From the IMG/VR virus record IMGVR_UViG_3300018068_000001, positions 1 through 35,379 of that record: a stretch of 35,379 nt of DNA, one strand, 5' to 3'. Below the pieces are notes generated by a model. The model saw only the letters and a program-made list of their open reading frames with translations, had not been told where the DNA came from and did not search any database. This document shows, piece by piece, positions 1-35,379 of the stretch (the first letter of the stretch is position 1; the number at the start of each line of letters is the position of its first letter). The DNA comes from a virus (Duplodnaviria; Caudoviricetes). Position numbers and translations under genes: made by a program.

Positions 1-60
1 ACCTGATATCCGCCATGGCATGATCTAATCTATCTATTTGCTTTTTTTGTTGAAGCCAAT
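1..60. repeat. Terminal direct repeat (circular assembly overlap), copy 1
   Basis: Identical to 35320-35379; the TnpB reading frame runs across the junction without a break. Confidence 0.97.
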
Positions 61-832
61 GTCCTGATTTTTTTTCAAACTTTTTACTGCCGATTTTACG
101 AGAAAGTCTTGTTTGAAGTATAGTTTTACGATCTTCTAATTTTTTTAATTTATCAGTATCTAATTGATAACCAGTTCCATCGGATAATGCTACAGTCTTG
201 ACTATCCCACGATTTATACCTACTGCCGGTAATGCTCTAATAGTGACATCTATGGTTTTTTCAACTAATATACAGACATACCAATATTCTCTTTCGTGTA
301 CTATAGATAGACTTATTATCTTATCCGCTGGATGCTCTAAATATGGCCTATCTATATCAATTCGGATCAGTGCTTCAATTTTTGGTAATTTCAAGTAATG
401 CCTACCCTGATCGTCCATATCTATACGAAAAATAGATTTAGGGAAATACAGTCTATGCAAATCACCTCTGTGTTTTTTTCTAGGATAACCTGGAGTTTCC
501 CCCTTCTTGACTCTTTTAAAAAAATTCGAAAAAGCTTTATCCAAATCTCTCAGAACTTCCTGCTGGGTACAACAGGGAAGAGCATTTAACCACTCATAAC
601 GTGCCCGTAAGATTGTCAGACGTTTAGCAGTACCTACTGTATTAATGCCATCTGGATGTTTAGTTCCAAAGTAACCCATAGATAATTTATACCGCTTGTA
701 TAAGCCACTCTTCAACCGCAGAGAACGATTCCATAGATACCTACATGCACATGACCACTGATATAGAGTACTGGCACATGTAGGTGATATCCTCAAGGGG
801 TACTTGTAAACTGTGGTGATCTGCTTTTCCAT
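1..832 (-). CDS. tnpB: TnpB-family RNA-guided protein, N-terminal part (405 aa in total across the origin); RuvC-I D->N, predicted nuclease-dead
   Basis: Manual translation from ATG at 832: MEKQITTVYKYPLRIS...CRYLWN...QQEVLRDLDKAFSNFFKRVKKGETPGYPRKK...LKLPKI...WYVCILVE...AVGINRGIVKTVALSDG. It is in frame with the 34934..35335 ORF. Absent from the ORF track because it crosses the window end. Confidence 0.93.
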   Translation of the reverse strand, partial: MEKQITTVYKYPLRISPTCASTLYQWSCACRYLWNRSLRLKSGLYKRYKLSMGYFGTKHPDGINTVGTAKRLTILRARYEWLNALPCCTQQEVLRDLDKAFSNFFKRVKKGETPGYPRKKHRGDLHRLYFPKSIFRIDMDDQGRHYLKLPKIEALIRIDIDRPYLEHPADKIISLSIVHEREYWYVCILVEKTIDVTIRALPAVGINRGIVKTVALSDGTGYQLDTDKLKKLEDRKTILQTRLSRKIGSKKFEKKSGHWLQQKKQIDRLDHAMADIR

Positions 833-876: not shown

Positions 877-905
877 AATATACGGAATTAAATTGAGTAA
901 CACAA
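877..905 (-). promoter_or_regulatory. Putative sigma70 promoter of tnpB
   Basis: TTGTGT-17bp-TATATT on the minus strand, about 45 bp upstream of the ATG. Confidence 0.4.
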
Positions 906-1011: not shown

Positions 1012-1722
1012 CTATTTTTCTCTTGAAGAGGTTGATAACTTTTGTGACAGACACTTTTTTATTCTACCGAGTTGCTGCAGCAACTGATACTTTCTACGTG
1101 ATAATTTACCGCTATTTAAACCTAATCGTTTTGCAGTATGGCCTATTTTAAGACCCTCCAAGGCATCCTGTATAATAGCCAGGTCAGTGGGATCCTCAAG
1201 TACCTTTAGCTCATCCTGTGCCAGATCTATCGCTATAGGAGACTGTTCCCCCCACTTTTTGAACTTTGCATTTATAGCACCCATTTGACCATCGATCCCC
1301 TTGAGGTTTAATAGTTCTGCTATCTCTGTATAGTATAGTCGCATATTTCGACATCGAGCTAAAAGGGATTGTCGCTCGGGTAGGATTTTTATAAATTTCT
1401 CCGGGTACTTAAAATATTCCTGTCGAGATAAACTCATACCAGTATAACCATCAAGTAATTTTTGATCATTCCTACGTTGATTTAACTCTTGTAATGCTGA
1501 TGCTTCGGTACGAGCAATCAAAGCGGTTTCGAGTTCTTTTTGGGTTAATACTGGTTTCCCTGATGGATCTTCTATCAGTCCTGTAACACCATCCCAATAA
1601 GACTCGTTCAGGTCAGCATCATCAAGAGTTCGTAGTAACTGATTATTACGTTTTGCGTAATTTATTATCTTACTCTGGATCTCTGGTATAACACGTATAA
1701 GATTTTCTTGGATAAATGACAT
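1012..1722 (-). CDS. Hypothetical protein with sigma-region-4/HTH-like segments
   Basis: 236 aa with AGGAG RBS. YTEIAELLNL and EGLKIGHTAKRLGLNSGKLSRRKYQLL resemble HTH motifs. Confidence 0.6.
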   Translation of the reverse strand: MSFIQENLIRVIPEIQSKIINYAKRNNQLLRTLDDADLNESYWDGVTGLIEDPSGKPVLTQKELETALIARTEASALQELNQRRNDQKLLDGYTGMSLSRQEYFKYPEKFIKILPERQSLLARCRNMRLYYTEIAELLNLKGIDGQMGAINAKFKKWGEQSPIAIDLAQDELKVLEDPTDLAIIQDALEGLKIGHTAKRLGLNSGKLSRRKYQLLQQLGRIKKCLSQKLSTSSREK

Positions 1723-2403: not shown

Positions 2404-3120
2404 ATGCCACCAGAATTTAAGCGATCCTATCGACGGGGGTATCTTACTGATTGTAAAATCGTTGACCAGTCTATTCATTTACTTATTGGAATACCATATC
2501 CTGGCGATAAGTGGTACAACTATATTGAACGGCGCCCCAATGCCATTAGCGCAGTTTATCGAGAGATGGGAGTACATTTAACTCACAACATATTGATTGA
2601 TCATAAAAATTTATCCCAGTTCATATCCTCTCATAGATACTGTGTTTTTCGGTTATCCAAACCTGTTGATTCTGCCAATGGTAGTTATTTTTTAAAATTT
2701 ATTAATCACGAAATGATAACTGGTTATCCTATAAGTATTCCCAGGATTACATGGGAACCTGCTAAAACAGACGGAATTACTAAAACAGAGGCAATTAATT
2801 TTCTGAGCACTTCGATTTTATCTCCTATATATAAACATTTAAAAACCTTCGCATATCTGCGGGATATCCCTGATGGGTTTACTATCCCATACATAGCATT
2901 ATCTCAATCTGATATCACATTATATAAGGATATTATAACTGCTGCATTTGGTACCCATAGAATTATGGTAGCAGAGTTATATCTGCGAAATTTACTTCAC
3001 ATATCAGAGGAGGTTATCCTATCTGGTAGAGCACAAATAAATAGGCAGAAGAAAATTGAAAAAATTGATGAAGAAAGTGTTAATCAGTTAACTATATCCG
3101 AAATCGCTGAAAGTTTATAA
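2404..3120 (+). CDS. Hypothetical protein (238 aa)
   Basis: ATG at 2404 follows the GAAGGAGGA RBS; the longer 2314 start lies inside the leader hairpin. Confidence 0.75.
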   Translation: MPPEFKRSYRRGYLTDCKIVDQSIHLLIGIPYPGDKWYNYIERRPNAISAVYREMGVHLTHNILIDHKNLSQFISSHRYCVFRLSKPVDSANGSYFLKFINHEMITGYPISIPRITWEPAKTDGITKTEAINFLSTSILSPIYKHLKTFAYLRDIPDGFTIPYIALSQSDITLYKDIITAAFGTHRIMVAELYLRNLLHISEEVILSGRAQINRQKKIEKIDEESVNQLTISEIAESL

Positions 3121-3882: not shown

Positions 3883-4028
3883 TTGCATTAGGCATCTATT
3901 GCTGGTATCTTATATGAGTCCGGTAGCACGGGAATTAAAAGAAAACTAAAAAATTTATATAATTTGGACCAACTCCCTGCGGGTACATCCACTGTACTCG
4001 GTGCTACCAGGGAGGGGGTCCATTTTTT
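3883..4028 (+). promoter_or_regulatory. Promoter with structured leader/attenuator (element 2)
   Basis: TTGCAT-17-TATCTT; stem TGGACC..CTCCCTG / CAGGGAG..GGTCCA followed by T6 and a GGAGG RBS. Confidence 0.7.
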
Positions 4029-6981: not shown

Positions 6982-8205
6982 TTATATCAAAGTCACACCT
7001 ATTCTAACTGCAGTCAGGGACTGATTGAGGATATAGGTTGTCCCCGTAGTATGTGGTTTGATTTGAAGCTCTATTGAAGAGCCAGCTTTAAGCTCCATGA
7101 ATCCTGATCCCATTATCTGTTGATAACCATTGTCAACATTATTAACTTGATATGATTGTAATAACAAGTATTCTGATGTGTCCGGATCATATCTACGTAC
7201 TCTTGTTTCTACTATGTCACTTCCGCCTGGTATAGCATTGGATGAAATAGATAGACTATAGTTGACCTGATAGAAACCTGCGTAGGTTGCAAATAACTTA
7301 TGTGATGCCACTGTAAAATTATATGTAAATTGCTCAAATAAATTATCTACTATCTGATACCAAGTTCCGCCAGTTAATCCTAGAGCATCTCCACTATGAT
7401 CAGACGGAGCTATGATATTCCCGCGACATAAATTAATACCCCCGCTGATCATTCCCGTGGCGTTAAGTGAGCCGTTCAATTCGAACCACCCAGCAAAGGT
7501 GTTTGTAAGTCTTGATGGTTCTTGATGTGATGCATCAACAAATATCGGTATCGATCCCGCTATCCCGGTACCACCTATTTGTGCTGGGGGAGTTAAACCT
7601 GTAGCACCCTGGATACCTTGAGCACCAGTTTGACCCTGGAGACCCTGGATGCCAGTTACTCCCTGTAGCCCCTGATTGCCCTGGATACCTGGATCTCCCT
7701 GGATACCCTGAGTACCTATTGCTCCCGTATTACCTTGACTACCTTGGATACCTGTTACTCCTGTATCACCTTGGGTACCCTGAATCCCTTGAGCCCCTGT
7801 ATCACCTTGTACTCCTGTTTGCCCTTGAATCCCCTGACTTCCCTGTAATCCTGTTATCCCATCAGGTCCTATGATAGATGCTCCTGTTTGACCCTGGGAA
7901 CCAGTTTGCCCTTGACCACCTTGTAATCCGGTTGTGCCTATAAGACCAGTGACACCCTGTATACCAGTTACTCCAGTACCTCCTGGTATCGATAGACCAG
8001 TTTCACCAGGCATACCCTGGATACCTGTCATCCCATATATCGCCATCTGATCTTCAGGAAGATACTTTTTGATGGTACCATCCGAAAATTTATGGATCAT
8101 TTTATCCGTATCACTGGCAAAACCTGATTGCTGATTCCTTAAAGCATAATATAATCCGGTTTCCCCCGTTTCAACTCGTATAACATCTGATAATATTATT
8201 GACAT
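6982..8205 (-). CDS. Collagen-like fibre protein with a C1q/TNF-like C-terminal head
   Basis: Gly-X-Y run, then a beta-rich C-terminus with AGFYQVNYSLS...MELKAGSSIELQI. Confidence 0.8.
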   Translation of the reverse strand: MSIILSDVIRVETGETGLYYALRNQQSGFASDTDKMIHKFSDGTIKKYLPEDQMAIYGMTGIQGMPGETGLSIPGGTGVTGIQGVTGLIGTTGLQGGQGQTGSQGQTGASIIGPDGITGLQGSQGIQGQTGVQGDTGAQGIQGTQGDTGVTGIQGSQGNTGAIGTQGIQGDPGIQGNQGLQGVTGIQGLQGQTGAQGIQGATGLTPPAQIGGTGIAGSIPIFVDASHQEPSRLTNTFAGWFELNGSLNATGMISGGINLCRGNIIAPSDHSGDALGLTGGTWYQIVDNLFEQFTYNFTVASHKLFATYAGFYQVNYSLSISSNAIPGGSDIVETRVRRYDPDTSEYLLLQSYQVNNVDNGYQQIMGSGFMELKAGSSIELQIKPHTTGTTYILNQSLTAVRIGVTLI

Positions 8206-11627: not shown

Positions 11628-12599
11628 TTACATCCATGATGCATTAAATTTTCCGTTATTTGTATCATCTACTATGGAATATTTGGTGATAGCATACCCA
11701 GATAATGAATCTGCTGATATATAGATATAATCTCCATCTACATAAGAGCCTACGTCAAAGTTAGTACTTCTTGGAAATATGTAAAGTGGTATAAAGTTGT
11801 ATTTATTGAAAAATATAAGATTGTATCTACTACCCATATCAGGGCTACATGATTTACCAACAAGATAATCTTTATATTTAGACATGAATGAAATGTTAAA
11901 ATCACCTGGTATGGAACATGGGAACTCTGCTATCTTATTAAATGATGATCCATTCCAATGTATAAGATCTATCCTATTCTCTATCCCTATAGGCATATCT
12001 TCATCTACAAGTGGTAGGTAGGGAAATCCTACTTTATTTGAATAACCTGCGGTATGATCATCTATTACATACTGAGCGAGCCATGTGAGTGTACTACCAG
12101 ATACTGACCAAGCATCAATATAGCAACCAAATCCAGAAGTGGTTTCTGATTTTGTCCAGAGTCTATCTCCTGATGGCATCATATAACCCCATAAGGCTCT
12201 TAAACCAAATGAGGTAGAGCTTATTACTGTACCTGTGTAATTATAAAATCTTATGTACCCAGAATCATACCCAAGAACATAAGACCCGTTGAGTGTGCAC
12301 ATATTGGATGAATTACCACGTGTTATAGAGTATATCTGAGAAACAATGGCACCATTAAAATGGGAAAATCTTAATATACAACTACTACCCACTACCCCAT
12401 CAGATTGGACAAAGTAATTATTATCCCAATAATGTGATTCTTTACTTGAGTATGGGCTGTACGCTACCCAATTCATGTTTAAATCATATATAGCTACTTG
12501 AGCATTCCAATTAGCACAATAAAAATAACCTCCAAATTTTGCTATATCATTAGATATATGATTGGTGCTATAGCTATGTGCTACCGAAGTAAGTATCAT
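11628..12599 (-). CDS. Hypothetical beta-rich (propeller-like) protein
   Basis: Aromatic/Ser-rich 323 aa in the tail module. Confidence 0.6.
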   Translation of the reverse strand: MILTSVAHSYSTNHISNDIAKFGGYFYCANWNAQVAIYDLNMNWVAYSPYSSKESHYWDNNYFVQSDGVVGSSCILRFSHFNGAIVSQIYSITRGNSSNMCTLNGSYVLGYDSGYIRFYNYTGTVISSTSFGLRALWGYMMPSGDRLWTKSETTSGFGCYIDAWSVSGSTLTWLAQYVIDDHTAGYSNKVGFPYLPLVDEDMPIGIENRIDLIHWNGSSFNKIAEFPCSIPGDFNISFMSKYKDYLVGKSCSPDMGSRYNLIFFNKYNFIPLYIFPRSTNFDVGSYVDGDYIYISADSLSGYAITKYSIVDDTNNGKFNASWM

Positions 12600-13438
12600 A
12601 TTATACTATACCCTATGTTAAGACTTAATCTATGCATACCAGTTACAGATACCAGATTAAATATTACTATATCTTCTGCTGACATAGATCTATTAGCCCA
12701 ATTGGTTATATCTGTATCACGATTTTTTACAGTGCCATTAAGTACCGCACCAGTCTCATTGTAATGCATAAGAGTTGCCCCAGGATATGTTGAGTAATTA
12801 GTCCTGCTTATATCGAATCGAGCATACCCACCGGTACTCCCAAAAATATTATACTTATAAACCTGAGATGTGACAGGGATAACGATCTGACCTTTGATTC
12901 CTGGAGTGAGAAGAGCTCCTCCTGCATCTACTATTATATTGATCATGCCAGTATAACTAGCGGTACCTCTCATCCCTGTTACTCCTTGTAGACCTGATGA
13001 TCCCTGGATACCTGTAACACCTTGAGAACCTACAGGACCAAGTGTACCTCGTAATCCTGTTAGACCTCTTAACCCAGTTATTCCTTGTAGCCCAGTTACT
13101 CCTTGTAATCCCTGAGCTCCCGTAACACCCATGGCTGCATATGCACCATCTAATCCTGTGGGACCTCTTAACCCAGTTGATCCCGGAGGACCACCAAATG
13201 CACCAGTTGTACCTTGGATACCAGTCTCACCTCCAAACGGAAGATCTACCCATGACATCCCGGTACCACCACATTGCATGATCTGACCAGTTGCTCCTGC
13301 AGTAGCCGGGAATGCATTATCATTGATATATAGATTAGTATCATCTACTGATATACTCACAGATCGATTATGCTTAGGAGTTATCCTGCGAGCATTGTAA
13401 GTTATATCAGCAAAATCTTTAAATTCCCAGACTGGCAT
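12596..13438 (-). CDS. Collagen-like virion protein
   Basis: Central Gly-X-Y repeats. Confidence 0.8.
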   Translation of the reverse strand: MPVWEFKDFADITYNARRITPKHNRSVSISVDDTNLYINDNAFPATAGATGQIMQCGGTGMSWVDLPFGGETGIQGTTGAFGGPPGSTGLRGPTGLDGAYAAMGVTGAQGLQGVTGLQGITGLRGLTGLRGTLGPVGSQGVTGIQGSSGLQGVTGMRGTASYTGMINIIVDAGGALLTPGIKGQIVIPVTSQVYKYNIFGSTGGYARFDISRTNYSTYPGATLMHYNETGAVLNGTVKNRDTDITNWANRSMSAEDIVIFNLVSVTGMHRLSLNIGYSII

Positions 13439-15457: not shown

Positions 15458-18046
15458 TTATCTCGATATACTTATAGTGAATGCTGCATCAGTAAACCCA
15501 TTAATACCTGTAAAATTCATGAATAATGAATTACCAGCGGATACTGTATTATTCCCAGAAGCATTAAAAGTCTGTTCAGTAGATGATGCCCATACTTTAT
15601 CTATAGATGTAATCGCTGTACTATCTATTTTACATGTCACCATTCCAGTACCTCCTGATGATTTTATTACTAAACTGGATATTGTATAGTTTGCCGGGGC
15701 ATATTGATCCAATGTATAAGTTTTATCTCTCGGTATTTCTATATGACCATTGATGGAATCTATAGTCACACCTCTTATACCTGTAGTTCCTTGTGATCCT
15801 TGAAGACCTGTGATCCCTTGAGATCCAGTTTGTCCTTGAGATCCGGTTTGTCCTTGAGACCCTGTAGATCCTATTAATCCAGTGACTCCTTGAGATCCAG
15901 TAGCACCTATTAACCCGGTGACTCCTTGAGATCCAGTAGCACCTATTAATCCTGTCACACCTTGTGCCCCAGTTCCTCCTATAAGACCAGTGATCCCTTG
16001 AAGACCAGTGATCCCTTGAGATCCAGTTTGTCCTTGAGATCCTGTTATCCCTATAAGACCCGTGATACCTTGGAATCCTGTAGGTCCTACCTTAGAGCCT
16101 GATGATATCTGTACCCAATTTCCATCTAATCCAGTGACAAAACCAAAGAATGCTTCATCCTGAAAATTCCACATGATAGCTGGTACTATCGTAGCATCTA
16201 CGAAAGACCCTTGTTCATAAAAGTTACCAAGACCCGTGATACCCTGAGAACCGGTTATTCCTTGTGACCCTGTATCTCCCTGAGATCCAGTAACACCAAT
16301 TAACCCGGTGATACCCTGAGATCCTGTTATCCCTATAAGACCCGTGATACCCTGAGATCCAGTTTGTCCTTGAGAACCTGTTTGTCCTTGAGACCCAGTA
16401 GTACCTATGAGACCAGTTATTCCTTGAGAGCCAGTGTCACCCTGAGATCCTGTTTGTCCTTGTGACCCTGTATCTCCCTGAGATCCAGTCGATCCTTCTA
16501 ATCCAGTAGCACCTTGTAGCCCAGTTTGACCCCGCAGTCCTATAGACCCTGTATCTCCCTGAGACCCTGTATCTCCCTGAGATCCAGTCACCCCATCTAA
16601 TCCGGTAGTACCTTGTAATCCTATAGACCCTGTATCTCCCTGAGATCCAGTTTCTCCTATGAGACCGGTGATACCAATGAGGCCAGTAATACCTTGAGAA
16701 CCTTGAGCACCTATTTGTCCTTGAGATCCAGTTTCCCCTTGATACCCTGTAGGACCCATTAATCCTGTATCCCCTGTACCAGTTTCTCCCTGAACACCAG
16801 TCATACCTCTTAAACCGGTAGCACCCTGTAGACCAGTAAATCCTACCATACCTGTGAGACCAAGTTGACCCGTGGGACCTGCCATACCTGTATCTCCTTG
16901 AGATCCAGTATCACCTTGAGACCCAGTAGATCCTTCTAACCCTGTAGTACCTTGAGCACCTGTTAGGCCTCTTGCCCCAGTTAGACCCTGAGATCCTGTG
17001 GTACCATGTAATCCTGTAACTCCTACGAGTCCTGTAATACCTTCTAACCCGGTGATACCTTGAGCACCAGTTTGTCCTATTAATCCTGTGATACCCTGAA
17101 ATCCTGTGAATCCTCTCATACCAGTCAAACCTAATTGACCAGTAGATCCCTGATTACCAGTTTCTCCCTGGGGACCTGCAAGACCATCTAATCCTGTGAA
17201 TCCTAATGACCCAGTTTCTCCTTGAAGACCCCGAGCCCCATTTTCTCCTATTATACCAGTTACTCCCTGAGATCCCTGTAATCCTGTAGATCCTACACCT
17301 GTGGCACCTTGTGACCCAGTAGACCCTTGTATCCCAGTTTGCCCTACAGAACCTGCAAGACCTGCTAATCCTGTCTGACCTTGAGAACCTGTGAGACCTT
17401 GGGACCCAGTATCTCCCTGGATGCCAGGTAATCCTATAATACCCGTCGCACCTTGTACCCCAGTATCCCCCATACCTGCGTATGATCCGGGGATACCTTG
17501 TACCCCAGTATCTCCTTGTACCCCAGTTTGACCCTGAGCACCTGCACCAGTCACACCTTGTACCCCAGTATCACCTTTTATGAGGGATTCATATGCTGCT
17601 CCAGTGATACCTGTATAATCTATAGGGTTACTGATCTTGATTATTATCTGGGGTGAAAACTGAGAAACAGATGCATCATTTATCTCATTTAGATAAAACT
17701 GAATGCCATAGTAATAACCGTGGACTGCTGTAGAAATAGAAGATGGATCCATCCTCCATGTTATCTGGATTCTTTTATCATCCAAAACTTTTGATGTATA
17801 AGTGAGTATCGAAGTAGTATATAACTCTGGAAGTACCTTACTCCATCTTAACTCATCTTCTGTAGGAGGCAGCACTCTATAAACTTGTGCAGTGAGCGTA
17901 TTGATGGTGATCAAGGTAGAAACTGATACAATGATCTCACCCTCTATGGTAGATCCTATATTAGTTTCTGCCAGAGGTACTTCACCTGAAAATGGCATCT
18001 TCTGCCCGTAGACAGTATAGCTTACTGGTTTGAAAATAACTGCCAT
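15458..18046 (-). CDS. Long collagen-like fibre protein
   Basis: Several hundred residues of G-X-T/G-X-Q triplets ([12 protein letters not shown]) with globular ends and one interruption. Confidence 0.9.
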
Positions 18047-30959: not shown

Positions 30960-33131
30960 TTAGAATCGTTCCCTACTTGCACGTACCTCAGTATAGGTCG
31001 AAGCCACTTGATAACTTAACGAAACAGCATCACAATTATGTACTAGAATATGATTAGCATAATACATATGTGCTTCTTCTACTTTTAGATTATAGACAAC
31101 TATATCATTTTTTAAATTTTGTATTTGTCCTATAAATGACATGACATTTTTTTCCACATGTCTTTCTTGGCACACCGTTGATTGCTGCTGGAGTAAATTT
31201 TTCTCCGCAAACAATGCACATAAATACTTTACCAATAGCCAGTATTTTATTATGGTATTTTTGATAACAATATCTACTACAACATGTAGTATCGGACCTA
31301 AATGATAAAAACTCTTTATTACATTCAGCGCATTTAATTTTTGTTTTTTTAACGTTGCCTTCTGCCCATGACTTTTTTGACTGTTTACTGTGCTGCTCTC
31401 TACCCTCTTTTGATGCATGCCAAGATTTTGTAAGATGTCTGATACTCTCAAGATGTTTTTTTTGTGCATCTGTGCATTTACCGATAGATAGCGAGTAATG
31501 TTGCATACTGTGTAACAGCTGTAGATTGCTGTACTCATTATTAGATCGATCCCCATCAATATGATGGATGATATAACCCTCTGGTATCTCAGTTTTATTA
31601 TGTTTTTGCCAAATGTACCTATGTAGTGCAGTAATATACCTTTTTTTGTTGATAGTTTTTTGATGGTAGAAATATCCTTTTCCGAGTCTAAAAAATTTGA
31701 GTCCATCATAAATAACGCTCTTGCTACTACCCATCTCAGTTGTTCCTTTAATGTAATTAAAAATACTGTGCTTTTATAGTACAATATATTAACTGCATCT
31801 AGGCGTATTGTAAGATTATCCCCTTTAGATATAATTGGGTGATTACCAGTACCAGTTAATCCTATGTTTGTTATTACCTTATCTACTTTATGATTTACTA
31901 TATTTTCTACTTTTTTAATCCCGAAGGGGGTTATAACCCAATCCCCTATCCTTAATGTTTCTATTGGTCTATCCCCATATGGGGTAGATATCATAGTGCC
32001 AGCAATAAAACATTGGTCATCGTGATCATGGCTCATATCCGTGGTAAACTCATTGCACTCATCCAGGAATACCCTATTCCACGGACCCTCTACGAGTGCT
32101 ACCTTGCCTAACTCTGCCCGGGTGATCCAAGGGATAGCTCTGTTTAACTTATCTCCCTCTGGTCTCACTGCCTTGATCACATAATTCCTTAGTTCCGGGT
32201 CCCTCTTGAGCTCATCGATAAATCCCTGCTGCTGCCCAGATGCTTCTATAACTATGATAGTAGATATCCCGTCACTCTTAGCTGTTTCTATGATACGTTT
32301 CCGGAGCTCTGGGAATTCGAGTTTAGCCCTAAAGATATTACCTATTACAAAAGTATCCCCCACCCACTGTGATAAAGCTCCTACTGAATAATCCGCTGAA
32401 AGCTTTATACTGACTGCTAAATCCCAAGCCCTCACTGCCTGAGTAAATCTTACTGGTTTGATTATCCGGAACCAAGCTTCTTGGATAGTACCTGCACCGA
32501 TTACTACGATATCCCCATCAAGTTCCTGCTGGGCAAACTTAGTGAAATACCTCTTACGTAGATCCTCCTCGTATCCTTTGGGGAGAAAAGCATTCTCAGA
32601 AGTTTTTTGGTGTATGATTTCTATTGTTGGGTCATCAGATACCTCTAGTGCATACACCCAGTTCTTTCCCTTAGGAGAACTTATAAGATGCCACTGACCA
32701 TCCTCACATTCACTCATACGCCCGATACATATCAAAAAAATGTCATCAGCTTTAAACTGCCGTGCCTCATCGATAAATACATCTGCTACTTCAAGTCCCC
32801 TGAGTGCATCAGGACTATCCCCCGATCTCAAAAAGATATAGGTACCCATAAGGACCACTATCATATCAGTGAGATTTATTGTGTAATGCTCATACTCTTT
32901 TAAACCATGTTCCTCTAACGTCTTCCTCAAGGTGATAAGTATGGTATCCTTGAGAGTCCGATAAGAAAAACTCACTATAAGTTGGGTCCTCTTTTGAAGA
33001 GCATTTCGTACTGCTTTGATACAGGCTACTTTTGATTTGCCTGATCGGATCCCTGCACGAAAGATGATACCCTTCTTTTTTGAACGCATAAATATGGTCT
33101 GCTTGGGATTAAGGGGGATATTGAGTATCAT
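30960..33131 (-). CDS. terL: Terminase large subunit containing an intein
   Basis: Walker A AGIRSGKS, Walker B VFIDEA, coupling motif SSPKG, nuclease AWDLA and HDDQ|CDA. Confidence 0.95.
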   Translation of the reverse strand: MILNIPLNPKQTIFMRSKKKGIIFRAGIRSGKSKVACIKAVRNALQKRTQLIVSFSYRTLKDTILITLRKTLEEHGLKEYEHYTINLTDMIVVLMGTYIFLRSGDSPDALRGLEVADVFIDEARQFKADDIFLICIGRMSECEDGQWHLISSPKGKNWVYALEVSDDPTIEIIHQKTSENAFLPKGYEEDLRKRYFTKFAQQELDGDIVVIGAGTIQEAWFRIIKPVRFTQAVRAWDLAVSIKLSADYSVGALSQWVGDTFVIGNIFRAKLEFPELRKRIIETAKSDGISTIIVIEASGQQQGFIDELKRDPELRNYVIKAVRPEGDKLNRAIPWITRAELGKVALVEGPWNRVFLDECNEFTTDMSHDHDDQCFIAGTMISTPYGDRPIETLRIGDWVITPFGIKKVENIVNHKVDKVITNIGLTGTGNHPIISKGDNLTIRLDAVNILYYKSTVFLITLKEQLRWVVARALFMMDSNFLDSEKDISTIKKLSTKKGILLHYIGTFGKNIIKLRYQRVISSIILMGIDLIMSTAIYSCYTVCNITRYLSVNAQMHKKNILRVSDILQNLGMHQKRVESSTVNSQKSHGQKATLKKQKLNALNVIKSFYHLGPILHVVVDIVIKNTIIKYWLLVKYLCALFAEKNLLQQQSTVCQERHVEKNVMSFIGQIQNLKNDIVVYNLKVEEAHMYYANHILVHNCDAVSLSYQVASTYTEVRASRERF
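31035..32012 (-). mobile_element. Intein (326 aa) in TerL
   Basis: Starts CFIAGTMISTPYGDRPIETLRIGDWV, has block B TGNHP, ends VYNLKVEEAHMYYANHILVHN followed by Cys+1. Confidence 0.93.
31105..31734 (-). CDS. HNH endonuclease with C-terminal Cys4 zinc-ribbon repeats, nested out of frame within the intein
   Basis: LHRYIW...IIHHIDGDRSNNEYSNLQLL...H; CAEC..CCSRYC..CIVC..TCGKKC; own AAGGA RBS. Confidence 0.88.
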   Translation of the reverse strand: MGSSKSVIYDGLKFFRLGKGYFYHQKTINKKRYITALHRYIWQKHNKTEIPEGYIIHHIDGDRSNNEYSNLQLLHSMQHYSLSIGKCTDAQKKHLESIRHLTKSWHASKEGREQHSKQSKKSWAEGNVKKTKIKCAECNKEFLSFRSDTTCCSRYCYQKYHNKILAIGKVFMCIVCGEKFTPAAINGVPRKTCGKKCHVIYRTNTKFKK

Positions 33132-33134
33132 TAC

Positions 33135-33719
33135 CTAATCTCCCAGAGCATCTACGATAGAGCCTGGTTCCAGAGTGCTCCCTGGGAATTTCCCTTCCAG
33201 CCCCTTTATCACTTCTTGATAAACTATCTGCAGACCATCCAAACTATGACCATTACTGGTGACATCTACCTTATCACTCCACATACCCAAATATCTTCCT
33301 AAGAGTTCTAGAGCTTTTTCTGCTGAGTGTAGAGTGATACTTGCACCAAACTGACTTTGTTTAATGGACTGGATCAGTCTCCCATTGACCTTACCATCTA
33401 ACTTTCGTAAGCTACCATCTGGATTCAGAAAATCCTTGATGTCGACACACGCTATTTCCCGAAGTCGAGCGATCACAAAAGCCACCTGCTCCTGGTTCTT
33501 TTCAGCTATATCTTTGGTGTAATACGCAAGGTATCTCTTTACTTGGGGCTTCTGCAACTCTTTGGGACCCACGGTGTGACAAGACTTTACAGGGTAACCT
33601 GCTTGACGTGCAGCTTTACTTTTGTTCCAGCATAAGACATACTCGTGCACTAAATTGATTTGTCTTTGTGATAAATTGGAAAAATCCTCGGGATCTGTAG
33701 CGATCTTGGTACTGCCCAT
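33135..33719 (-). CDS. terS: Terminase small subunit
   Basis: LSQRQ..VHEYV..WNKSKAARQAGY...KPQVKRYL...KALELLGRYLGMW. Confidence 0.92.
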   Translation of the reverse strand: MGSTKIATDPEDFSNLSQRQINLVHEYVLCWNKSKAARQAGYPVKSCHTVGPKELQKPQVKRYLAYYTKDIAEKNQEQVAFVIARLREIACVDIKDFLNPDGSLRKLDGKVNGRLIQSIKQSQFGASITLHSAEKALELLGRYLGMWSDKVDVTSNGHSLDGLQIVYQEVIKGLEGKFPGSTLEPGSIVDALGD

Positions 33720-33811
33720 GTATACCTCCAGGGTGGTATGGGTATATGATTGATAGGGATCTCCAGGATCCCTTGGTTATATTTATATAATACTGTGATA
33801 TCATGAGATTA

Positions 33812-34300
33812 TTAAGTAGACTGGTATTTAGCCCACTGTACTCTGAGCTTTTTACGATAAAAGCTTACTCCTGACTTTGTCATGGAATGATCTTTTGCTA
33901 TGGTACTTTTATCCTTATCCTCTATAAGATCTTTTGCGATGGCTTTGTCCATACCTGTAAGTCCCATTATAAACGTTTGAAGATCTATGGTAGAACCTTC
34001 TCCAGAAATGGTGGGGGGTAATAGATCATCTGATATCTGTACTGTGATGTGTATTTTTTTTGCGTGATATCTATCATATATAAAATTTTTTATACTCTGG
34101 TATAGGTAAGTATCAAAGGAGGACTTTTGAGGATCATATCGTAGTAATAGATTATTATTTTTTATTTTTATATAGAAATCTGAGATGATCCCAGAAATTT
34201 CTTCTGCTGCTATTCTTTTCTTTATGATAAAAATACAGCATCTGGTTAGTTGATCATAATTTTTTACGATAAATTCATCTGGGCACTTTGATGGGATCAT
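33812..34300 (-). CDS. Sigma-70 family (ECF-sized) sigma-factor-like protein, 162 aa
   Basis: Region-2-like RYDPQKSSFDTYLYQSIKNFIYD and region-4-like STIAKDHSMTKSGVSFYRKKL. Start set at ATG 34300 because the upstream in-frame codons are CRISPR repeats. Confidence 0.75.
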   Translation of the reverse strand: MIPSKCPDEFIVKNYDQLTRCCIFIIKKRIAAEEISGIISDFYIKIKNNNLLLRYDPQKSSFDTYLYQSIKNFIYDRYHAKKIHITVQISDDLLPPTISGEGSTIDLQTFIMGLTGMDKAIAKDLIEDKDKSTIAKDHSMTKSGVSFYRKKLRVQWAKYQST

Positions 34301-34318
34301 ATATAACAATATAACATA

Positions 34319-34797
34319 TGATTCATCTCCATGTGTGTGAGGAATATTTTGATAGTTTTCTGGTTCATCCCCGCGTGTGTGGGGAACATTACTGCAATAT
34401 ACCCGGTTCATCCCCGCGTGTGTGGGAGACACATTTAATTTTTAAATGTATATTAAAAGTGTTCGGTTCATCCCCGCGTGTATAGGGAGCACTACATAAG
34501 GAGGTTCATCCCCGCGTGTGTGGAGAACACCAATTAATTCAAACAATAGTATCAGTTTTACAAGGTTCATCCCCGCGTGTGTGGGGAACACAAAAAGATC
34601 AAATCCTGAATCGGTGGGAAAAGCGGTTCATCCTCGCGTGTGTGGGGAACACTTTGTGGATAGTAAACCCATATAATAAATGACCGGTTCATCCCCGCAT
34701 GCGTGGAGAACACACCATGATTTAGTGCATCTATAATGTTTTTGTACTGTATACTGTACCACTATAGACGGTTCATCCCCGCGTGTGTGGGGAACAC
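34319..34797 (-). CRISPR. CRISPR array, 9 repeats of 29 bp (consensus GTGTTCCCCACACACGCGGGGATGAACCG), type I-E-like
   Basis: Repeats start (+ coordinates) at 34319 (degenerate, 8 transitions), 34361, 34404, 34464, 34502, 34563, 34624, 34685 and 34769. Spacers are 13, 14, 31, 9, 32, 32, 32 and 55 nt. Close to the E. coli I-E repeat GTGTTCCCCGCGCCAGCGGGGATAAACCG. Confidence 0.95.
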
Positions 34798-34835
34798 TTT
34801 GTGGATAACTGGTACCCACACAACTGTCAAAGAAC

Positions 34836-34923
34836 GTGTTCTCTACATACGCGAGACATTTCCCACTTCACAGACCCAGTTACCCGGCATCTCCATGGGC
34901 ACACCCCGGCGAACCTGCCGGTG
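34836..34923 (-). ncRNA. omegaRNA-derived, tracrRNA-like scaffold with anti-repeat
   Basis: Immediately 3' of the tnpB stop: hairpin CCGGC-AGGTTC-GCCGG, then GCCCATGGAGA...TCTGTGAAGTGGGAA (IS200/IS605 omegaRNA-like), then TCTCGCGTATGTAGAGAACAC, complementary to the repeat. Confidence 0.75.
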
Positions 34924-34933
34924 AATTTTTCTA

Positions 34934-35379
34934 TTATCTGTGCAGCATATTTAGTGCTGCGTTAGTATCCATGTTTTTTATAAACCCACATTTGGCACAT
35001 TTAAATCTTCTATATTTCTCATAAATATTCTCAGGTCCAGTATGCCCACAAGAGCTACATTCCTGGGTTATATAGGGGACTGATTTTTTAGTGACTGTAT
35101 GTCCTAATCTGTTCGATTTGTATTCCAGCATAATCCCTAATTGTCCCCATCCCTGTCGTAATTGTGCCCTGTTAAAATTAATTTTAATCTGGACATCAGT
35201 ACCTGGCTGTTCAATGGTGCCCTTAGCTGATTTAGTCATCTGCTTTATTTTATAATCTTCTATTGAAATATCCCCATAATGGGAAACTATGTGCCGTGAT
35301 GTCTGATGATTGAAGTTTAACCTGATATCCGCCATGGCATGATCTAATCTATCTATTTGCTTTTTTTGTTGAAGCCAAT
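34934..35379 (-). CDS. tnpB: TnpB-family protein, C-terminal part (RuvC-II, zinc ribbon, RuvC-III)
   Basis: ISIEDY (RuvC-II E298), MTKSAKGT, GWGQLGIMLEYK, ITQECSSCG..FKCAKCG, NMDTNAALN (RuvC-III D395). Confidence 0.95.
   Translation of the reverse strand, partial: WLQQKKQIDRLDHAMADIRLNFNHQTSRHIVSHYGDISIEDYKIKQMTKSAKGTIEQPGTDVQIKINFNRAQLRQGWGQLGIMLEYKSNRLGHTVTKKSVPYITQECSSCGHTGPENIYEKYRRFKCAKCGFIKNMDTNAALNMLHR
35320..35379. repeat. Terminal direct repeat, copy 2
   Basis: Identical to 1-60. Confidence 0.97.

Follow-up and report, generated by a model that had tools for sequence, protein, structure and literature searches.

An asparagine at RuvC-I shared by a clade of TnpB-like proteins, encoded in one phage genome beside an anti-repeat scaffold and a type I-E-like CRISPR array

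What might a phage do with a TnpB-like protein in which the first RuvC aspartate has become asparagine? The question arises from the window, by which we mean the whole stretch of 35,379 bases analysed here. This phage genome is circular and complete, it has genes for terminase, portal and capsid proteins, and its virus record is classed as complete, with direct terminal repeats. The gene and the elements that bear on its reading were as follows.

35320..35379, no strand: terminal direct repeat of 60 bp, a copy of bases 1-60
1..832, minus strand: tnpB-like gene, codons 1-277 (Pfam HTH_OrfB_IS605, E 9e-4)
34934..35319, minus strand: tnpB-like gene, codons 278-405 and stop, past the circular join (Pfam Cas12f1-like_TNB, E 1e-15; contiguous in locus L013)
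877..905, minus strand: candidate tnpB promoter pattern, seen by eye, common to locus L014, missed by the sigma-70 scan

At base 1 the ORF runs off the window, to resume at 35319, because the contig carries the 60-bp terminal direct repeat. Read through the join, tnpB encodes 405 aa, including N207, E298 (35260), D395 (34969) and the cysteines C365, C368, C385 and C388. In L013 the gene is unbroken over the join, the first 935 nt of the ORF are identical to the window and codon 207 is AAT; L014 is 92% identical and codon 207 is likewise AAT. A truncated gene was ruled out by the circular join and by the contiguous copy in L013. Neither cas1 nor a Y1 transposase was found in the complete genome. 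The plausible promoter proposed in an earlier note on this DNA fared unevenly, as a sigma-70 scan stood at chance level (one site, 1.3 expected), whilst the TTGTG-N-17-TATATT pattern at 905..877, again recognized by eye, recurs in L014 with different upstream genes. Since L014 carries other genes upstream of tnpB, the cassette appears to move between genomes.

Several other features of the genome were recorded. An ORF of 236 aa at 1012-1722 (minus strand), directly upstream of tnpB, had no Pfam or PHROG match, and tandem 10-nt repeats at 1945-1985 and 2035-2085, within non-coding 1723-2313, looked origin-like by eye. The large terminase gene (30960-33131, minus strand) contains an intein with Hint domains and is overlapped in another frame by an HNH ORF (31105-31734, minus strand). 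Long Gly-X-Y collagen-like repeats were present in tail-region proteins (6982-8205, 12596-13438 and 15458-18046, minus strand). A search for related phages with the capsid protein returned one identical 6-kb fragment.

The residue in question lies as follows.

212..214, minus strand: N207, RuvC-I Asp to Asn, followed by R208 (17/17 clade rows)

Translation confirmed that the AAT codon at 214-212 is residue 207 within AVGINRG, and N207 aligned with the RuvC-I Asp of ISDra2 TnpB. Contigs covered 212-214 in all four runs and all agreed, with no alternative letter; this support comes from assembled contigs rather than raw reads, contigs drop rare variants, and two of the runs (X1 and X2) are possibly the window's own source. 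A variant contig in X1 differed from the window at 12 positions, none of them at 212-214. The protein search gave 69 matches, 29 of them at 43-92% identity (16/29 Asn, 13/29 Asp), and a profile search added three more members, so that 17 of 32 close homologues read GINRG. Amongst 146 distant TnpBs, 143 had Asp, two His, one Ala and none Asn. In a tree of 36 rows (the window, the 29 homologues and six of the 146 distant proteins as outgroup), the 17 Asn rows formed a single branch, with support of 100/99, nested inside Asp relatives. The Asn rows were 50-94% identical to each other (median 60%). Clade members in the metagenome, viral and genome collections scanned were limited to L013, L014 and the window's own record, and the annotated phage set held no clade protein above 60% identity and no match to the scaffold described below.

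The earlier note had allowed for a private mutation or an assembly error, which is refuted by the same residue in four runs, at two other loci and throughout the clade. That such an erroneous or private change, or else a functionless, decaying relic, accounts for the locus is hardly credible. A degenerate far end of the adjacent array and a gene remnant in another virus would suit a relic, but Asn is fixed across full-length proteins at a median identity of 60%, and the same base recurs in the four runs and the two other loci. N207 is a real feature of the whole clade, and the system to which it belongs is larger than was first described.

The surroundings of N207 in the protein were compared in an alignment (A4) of the L013 protein, the 29 homologues and 66 of the 146 distant proteins, comprising 17 Asn, 13 Asp and 66 distant rows. 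The positions concerned are listed here.

35258..35260, minus strand: E298, RuvC-II, kept; L300 to Tyr (clade alignment)
35024..35026, minus strand: I376, replacing the zinc-finger-domain Arg aligned with AsCas12f1 R383 (clade and P0024 alignment)
34967..34969, minus strand: D395, RuvC-III, kept; A394 to Met (clade alignment)

Arg at position 376 was found in none of the 17 Asn rows, compared with 75 of the 79 Asp-type and distant rows; the window has Ile. Position 300 was Tyr or Phe in 17/17 Asn rows and Leu in 78/79 others, position 361 was Ile in 17/17 and Thr in 77/79 others, and position 394 was Met, Ile or Leu in 17/17 and Ala in 76/79 others. S362 was also changed in the window. The description of an otherwise intact TnpB therefore stands for E298, D395, the four cysteines and the full ORF, but not for R376, which is lost, nor for positions 300, 361, 362 and 394, which are changed. 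Through the Asp-type protein P0024, position 376 aligned with AsCas12f1 R383 and position 362 with S369, native numbers that were derived from a 10-residue offset in the chain. According to the available part of one report (bioRxiv 2023.07.03.547593), R383A abolishes cutting by AsCas12f1 and S369A lowers it; another, likewise available in part, states that a change of any DED residue abolishes TnpB activity (bioRxiv 2023.11.30.569447). On the strength of residues 207 and 376, crRNA-guided DNA cleavage is predicted to be absent, and we infer that the Asn-clade protein would not make double-strand cuts. Two Asp relatives, P0011 and P0029, are the nearest sisters of the Asn clade in the tree (92/96) and have Val at 376. 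They are already without Arg376, which suggests a stepwise loss.

The fold appears to be that of a TnpB. The structure model (pLDDT 93.7) had ISFba1 TnpB, AsCas12f and ISDra2 TnpB as its top matches, and the predicted WED/REC, RuvC and zinc-finger domains, with a best TM of 0.77 (ISFba1 TnpB), place the modelled protein within the TnpB superfamily.

Six residues of the site, N207, R208, E298, R381, D395 and N397, were each invariant in 17/17 Asn rows. Two of them, R208 and R381, are invariant arginines gained by the Asn clade, R381 through a one-residue insertion. As E298 and D395 stay invariant, residual chemistry is possible, and together with the gained arginines they could signal a rearranged working site. 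Cas12c reportedly retains its RuvC without cutting DNA. We judge it unlikely that the neighbouring array is used as proposed below whilst a rebuilt site keeps RNA processing, nicking or weak cutting. Under simple decay one would expect scattered residues rather than six fixed ones, rearranged sites that are conserved within TnpB clades are taken to stay active (PMC10691335, available text), and single substitutions may leave metal-dependent activity (PMC13622181, partial text). Yet two residues needed for cutting are absent, bulky residues have taken the place of small ones at 300, 361 and 394, and 117 of 394 columns are invariant within the Asn clade, so that invariance alone is common. The earlier suggestion that the protein is kept for binding rather than cutting is supported, and made stronger, by the fixation of Asn across the clade and by the changes at the nuclease site; the picture of a lone, otherwise intact TnpB that went with it does not hold.

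The protein had been treated as a lone TnpB, with no mention of the anti-repeat scaffold and the CRISPR array that lie downstream of the gene.

34828..34930, minus strand: omega-RNA-like scaffold, predicted tracrRNA; 81% identical over 97 nt in L083
34836..34859, minus strand: anti-repeat, a complement of the repeat's 5' part (sequence match, pairing)
34825..34835, minus strand: motif that we take to be boxA-like, kept in L013 and L083
34799..34823, minus strand: short hairpin between scaffold and first repeat (MFE folds)
34320..34797, minus strand: CRISPR array, nine repeats of 28 nt and eight spacers of 56/33/33/33/10/32/15/14 nt (repeat search)
34433..34464, minus strand: spacer 6, the first 20 nt an exact match to L083 2662-2681

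The scaffold is common to L013 and to L083, a locus in a 210-kb viral record. Its first hairpin is visible as a PAGSPG-like read-through at the protein level in 9/17 Asn and 8/13 Asp proteins alike, and therefore predates the Asn. At ordinary loci (L020, L025 and L044) a closed hairpin and then the end of the element come after the matching motif, the single omega-RNA layout of IS200/IS605 elements. The window departs from this layout, as only the 5' arm is present at the place of the last hairpin; the repeat supplies the 3' arm, with five bases left before the spacer. A boxA upstream of CRISPR arrays is described in the available text of PMC7862264.

Outside the array, on both strands, the anti-repeat was the best match to the first 18 nt of the repeat, with three mismatches compared with five for the next best; against repeat 1, three of the 18 positions were A-C mismatches. 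Anti-repeats paired better with their own repeats (14-16/18 in the window, four repeats tabulated, and 14-15/18 in L083) than in crossed combinations (12-13/18), and repeat and anti-repeat thus appear, by sequence comparison, to change together between the window and L083. Three scaffold helices were 100% paired in three loci, with three double changes, whilst the anti-repeat helix, for which two loci are informative, was 83% paired with two double changes. The whole named structure was 91% paired with five double changes, compared with 25-49% in slid controls. Between five and 25 of 500 shuffles reached the observed structure measures, which with three related rows give no probability; L013 stops short of the array, and the structure alignment puts some of its letters in repeat columns. 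Duplex energy was unremarkable, as the value for the anti-repeat was matched by 260 of 1000 shuffles with repeat 1 and by 23 of 1000 with repeat 5. The feature expected of a TranC, an omega-RNA-derived tracrRNA with an anti-repeat, is present here at the level of sequence, with a weak energy test. Rfam gave no match in 33700-35379. In the scaffold-motif scans, five of five matches were due to chance in one scan, one of 56 was real (L083) in another, and one of three was real in a third, in the same L083 record.

Many contigs carry the scaffold and diverge at 34819-34828. In four runs, contigs had 34819-34923 in common with the window but differed in both flanks, one of them following a different protein end; scaffold in such varied flanks points to more variants of the system in these samples. 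A third case of scaffold and repeats together may come from runs X2 and X6, where another contig led from the scaffold to a repeat-like end across some 87 other letters; the shorter side of this joint had just 23-24 letters, and joints of this kind are often spurious.

The array starts 136 nt past the tnpB stop. A plasmid array located beside casA-E, cas1e and cas2e (type I-E) has a repeat that differs from this one at a single base. The differing base, A10, was present in 8/8 well-preserved repeats, and the 3' nine bases, GGATGAACC, were invariant. A10 breaks the I-E hairpin (-9.0 kcal/mol or weaker, compared with -14.4 kcal/mol). Five of the eight spacers begin with G and three are only 10-15 nt long, and the far end of the array is degenerate. 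Run X4 contained an array with different spacer lengths, and hundreds of repeat-like contigs were found in the same runs. Amongst distant TnpB loci, this repeat occurred in 0/123 and some other spaced repeat in 6/123, and a motif scan for the exact repeat found 0 loci. A TnpB-sized effector beside a CRISPR array, as in TranC, was seen whole in the window only. L083 retains a remnant, in that positions 2750-3090 (G001) contain just the final codons of a tnpB like those of the Asn clade (P0020 is the best match, at 65% over 26 aa), and the scaffold, the anti-repeat and two repeats with a 33-nt spacer are kept right before a tmRNA gene. A full-length TnpB elsewhere in the same record (L111) was rejected as a member of the clade; it is a protein of the ordinary Asp type that shares 25% identity with P0002.

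The adjoining array most likely supplies the guides of the TnpB-like protein through the anti-repeat-bearing scaffold, to judge from these sequence relationships. A distinctly unlikely alternative is that protein and array are separate, the former a TldR-like dead TnpB with a fixed leader guide and the latter a mini-array feeding a host I-E Cascade. Compatible with such a separation are a repeat one base from I-E, spacers of 32-33 nt (4/8) with an AAG-type flank, the persistence of the L083 repeats without the protein, and the frequency of phage mini-arrays reported in the accessible part of PMC11656645. It fits poorly with the Cas6e hairpin, broken in 8/8 good repeats, with the three of eight spacers of only 10-15 nt, and with a scaffold that has no closed last hairpin of its own and whose arm co-varies with the repeat.

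The same near-identity allows another reading, namely that the dead protein and the anti-repeat act as an anti-CRISPR decoy that captures host I-E precursor crRNA from Cascade, the phage array being secondary. The host-type repeat is one base from the phage repeat and should therefore pair with the anti-repeat too; the hundreds of repeat-like contigs in the same runs would fit, and a phage Cas9 with a dead RuvC and a tracrRNA has been proposed to act in this way (PMC11656645 and PMC12669027, partial texts). We nevertheless regard a decoy as improbable, since the phage has retained an array of its own, with several spacers of which one matches a presumed promoter, and the stronger host I-E hairpins would resist pairing.

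Directly after the array, between it and the small terminase gene, an ORF at 33812-34306 (minus strand) had a weak Sigma70_r2 match (E 8e-4, below the cut-off and scored on the longer 33812-34432 frame). An RNA-guided activator acting with this sigma-like gene, comparable to dCas12f-sigmaE systems, is very improbable. The gene sits in front of the terminase genes, as a late regulator usually would; L083 has the tmRNA gene at its place; and the zinc finger is kept here, whereas it is described as lost in sigma-linked TnpBs in the available text of PMC10691335.

The one target found for the eight spacers is that of spacer 6 in L083, with 20/20 matches at the 5' end and 24/32 overall. It lies 13-32 nt upstream of the tmRNA gene and takes in a TATATT box, the start region and a boxA-like motif; a promoter at the target is assumed from this position. 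The flank is of the AAG type, AA preceding the first G of spacer 6. In shuffles of spacer 6 against the 210-kb record, 0/2000 reached 20 and 1/2000 reached 19, and the other seven spacers gave 5'-end matches of 9-10 nt at best in that record. Cascade would account for a 5'-anchored match and an AAG flank as well as TnpB would. L083's own repeats lie no more than about 70 nt from the target, which may thus be the promoter of a rival or a self-target that the cassette has inherited; both would suit a binder better than a cutter.

Against annotated phages, spacers 1, 2, 3, 4 and 6 gave nothing that spanned the spacer at high identity (the best was spacer 1, E 2e-3, 77% coverage at 84%), and spacers 5, 7 and 8 were too short for this comparison. 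The search for self-targets in the window found none that was convincing. Positions 14-28 of spacer 2 matched window 2873-2887 (plus strand) exactly over 15 nt, inside an ORF with no assigned function; the match is not at the 5' end, and 9/400 shuffled spacer sets reach 15. Spacer 8 matched 12/14 positions (the first nine exactly) at window 3940-3953 (plus strand), intergenic before a Rha-like gene, with an AAA-ending flank like that of the spacer 6 target; the site is A-rich and the match may be due to chance.

Taken together, these observations lead us to favour, by a modest degree of probability, a type V effector, TranC-like and dead as a nuclease, which would use a tracrRNA, borrow host I-E spacer acquisition and repress by binding. 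The clade-fixed D207N, with the loss of R376 and the changes at 300, 361 and 394, would prevent double-strand cutting. A tracrRNA:crRNA pair, or a natural fusion in the case of the first repeat, would present approximately the first 20 nt of a spacer as guide. Host I-E Cas1-Cas2 would write the spacers, a step proposed because the phage has no cas1, the repeat is I-E-like, four of the eight spacers are of 32-33 nt, five of the eight have a 5' G, and the one target found has AA before that G. Binding upstream of the tmRNA gene would then block transcription, either as a means of phage competition or as an inherited control on a neighbouring gene. Against this reading, L083 retains scaffold and repeats after losing the protein.

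A more specific history is conceivable but doubtful, in which the window holds a phage adaptive CRISPRi system near its origin. The last omega-RNA hairpin would have become an anti-repeat for captured I-E repeats, host Cas1-Cas2 would have provided the spacers, nuclease activity would have been lost in steps, with R376 going first, in the two nearest Asp relatives too, and D207 later, and promoters of other phages, such as that of a tmRNA gene, would be silenced; Asp-type sisters with the same scaffold would represent an earlier stage that still cuts.

If the favoured reading of a binding, tracrRNA-using effector is true, one small clade spans both the step from TnpB to a tracrRNA-using type V effector and that from nuclease to repressor, two transitions commonly reconstructed from end points that lie far apart. 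It would become testable how a class 2 system without its own cas1-cas2 gains spacers, by taking over class 1 repeats, and the protein would be a natural programmable DNA binder of 405 aa with an array for multiplexing. Screens that require two DED changes would then be shown to overlook such proteins. Our literature search, with most subscription journals outside its coverage, found no paper on this combination, and the clade may already stand in published tables as TranC or as a V-U group.

Of the known systems, ordinary IS200/IS605 TnpBs such as ISFba1 and ISDra2 are alike in fold, size, domain order and scaffold layout; they differ in that the window has no Y1 transposase, no closed last hairpin and N-E-D rather than D-E-D. 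TldRs, in the available texts (bioRxiv 2023.11.30.569447, PMC13622181), are dead TnpBs with a promoter target, some of them phage-borne, but the former source defines them by at least two DED changes and describes a zinc finger that is often lost and one fused guide RNA. The Asn clade, with one DED change (1/3), a whole zinc finger and an array, falls outside that definition, and its single change means that a TldR screen would have passed over it. Cas12m (V-M) is presented in partial texts (PMC11656645, PMC11013384) as CRISPR-guided, with an altered RuvC and binding-based repression, on mobile elements; according to the accessible part of PMC11013384 it is about 600 aa and without a tracrRNA, whereas the window has an anti-repeat. 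In the fold search Cas12m ranked 25 and below (TM 0.55-0.64, compared with 0.77 for TnpB), and the best PADLOC profiles were Cas12u4 and Cas12f, not Cas12m.

TranCs, transposon-CRISPR intermediates (Jin et al. 2025, as cited in the available portions of PMC13565253 and bioRxiv 2026.03.27.714800), resemble the window, as far as those portions describe them, in a TnpB-sized effector by an array, an omega-RNA split into tracrRNA and crRNA, and the lack of adaptation genes; CauTranC9 is moreover of about 414 aa and phage-borne (bioRxiv 2026.03.27.714800, partial text). The TranCs so described are active nucleases with repeats of 32-38 bp of unassigned type, whereas the window has an altered RuvC site and a 28-29-nt repeat of I-E type. 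LaTranC matched P0024 weakly (E 2e-5). In Cas12r of the Thermus Lalka phages, the available text (bioRxiv 2026.04.20.719267) describes a TnpB-like gene of a phage with degenerate 29-bp I-E-like repeats after it, spacers of 32-33 bp, proposed host I-E adaptation and conflict between mobile elements. According to the same text, Cas12r is a protein of 564 aa that depends on an active RuvC and works without a tracrRNA; the window protein, with 405 aa, no RuvC-I Asp and an anti-repeat scaffold, is therefore not a Cas12r. By analogy with these systems, the window's protein and array would work like Cas12m and TldR and be built like TranC, in a phage setting and with I-E-like repeats as in Cas12r.
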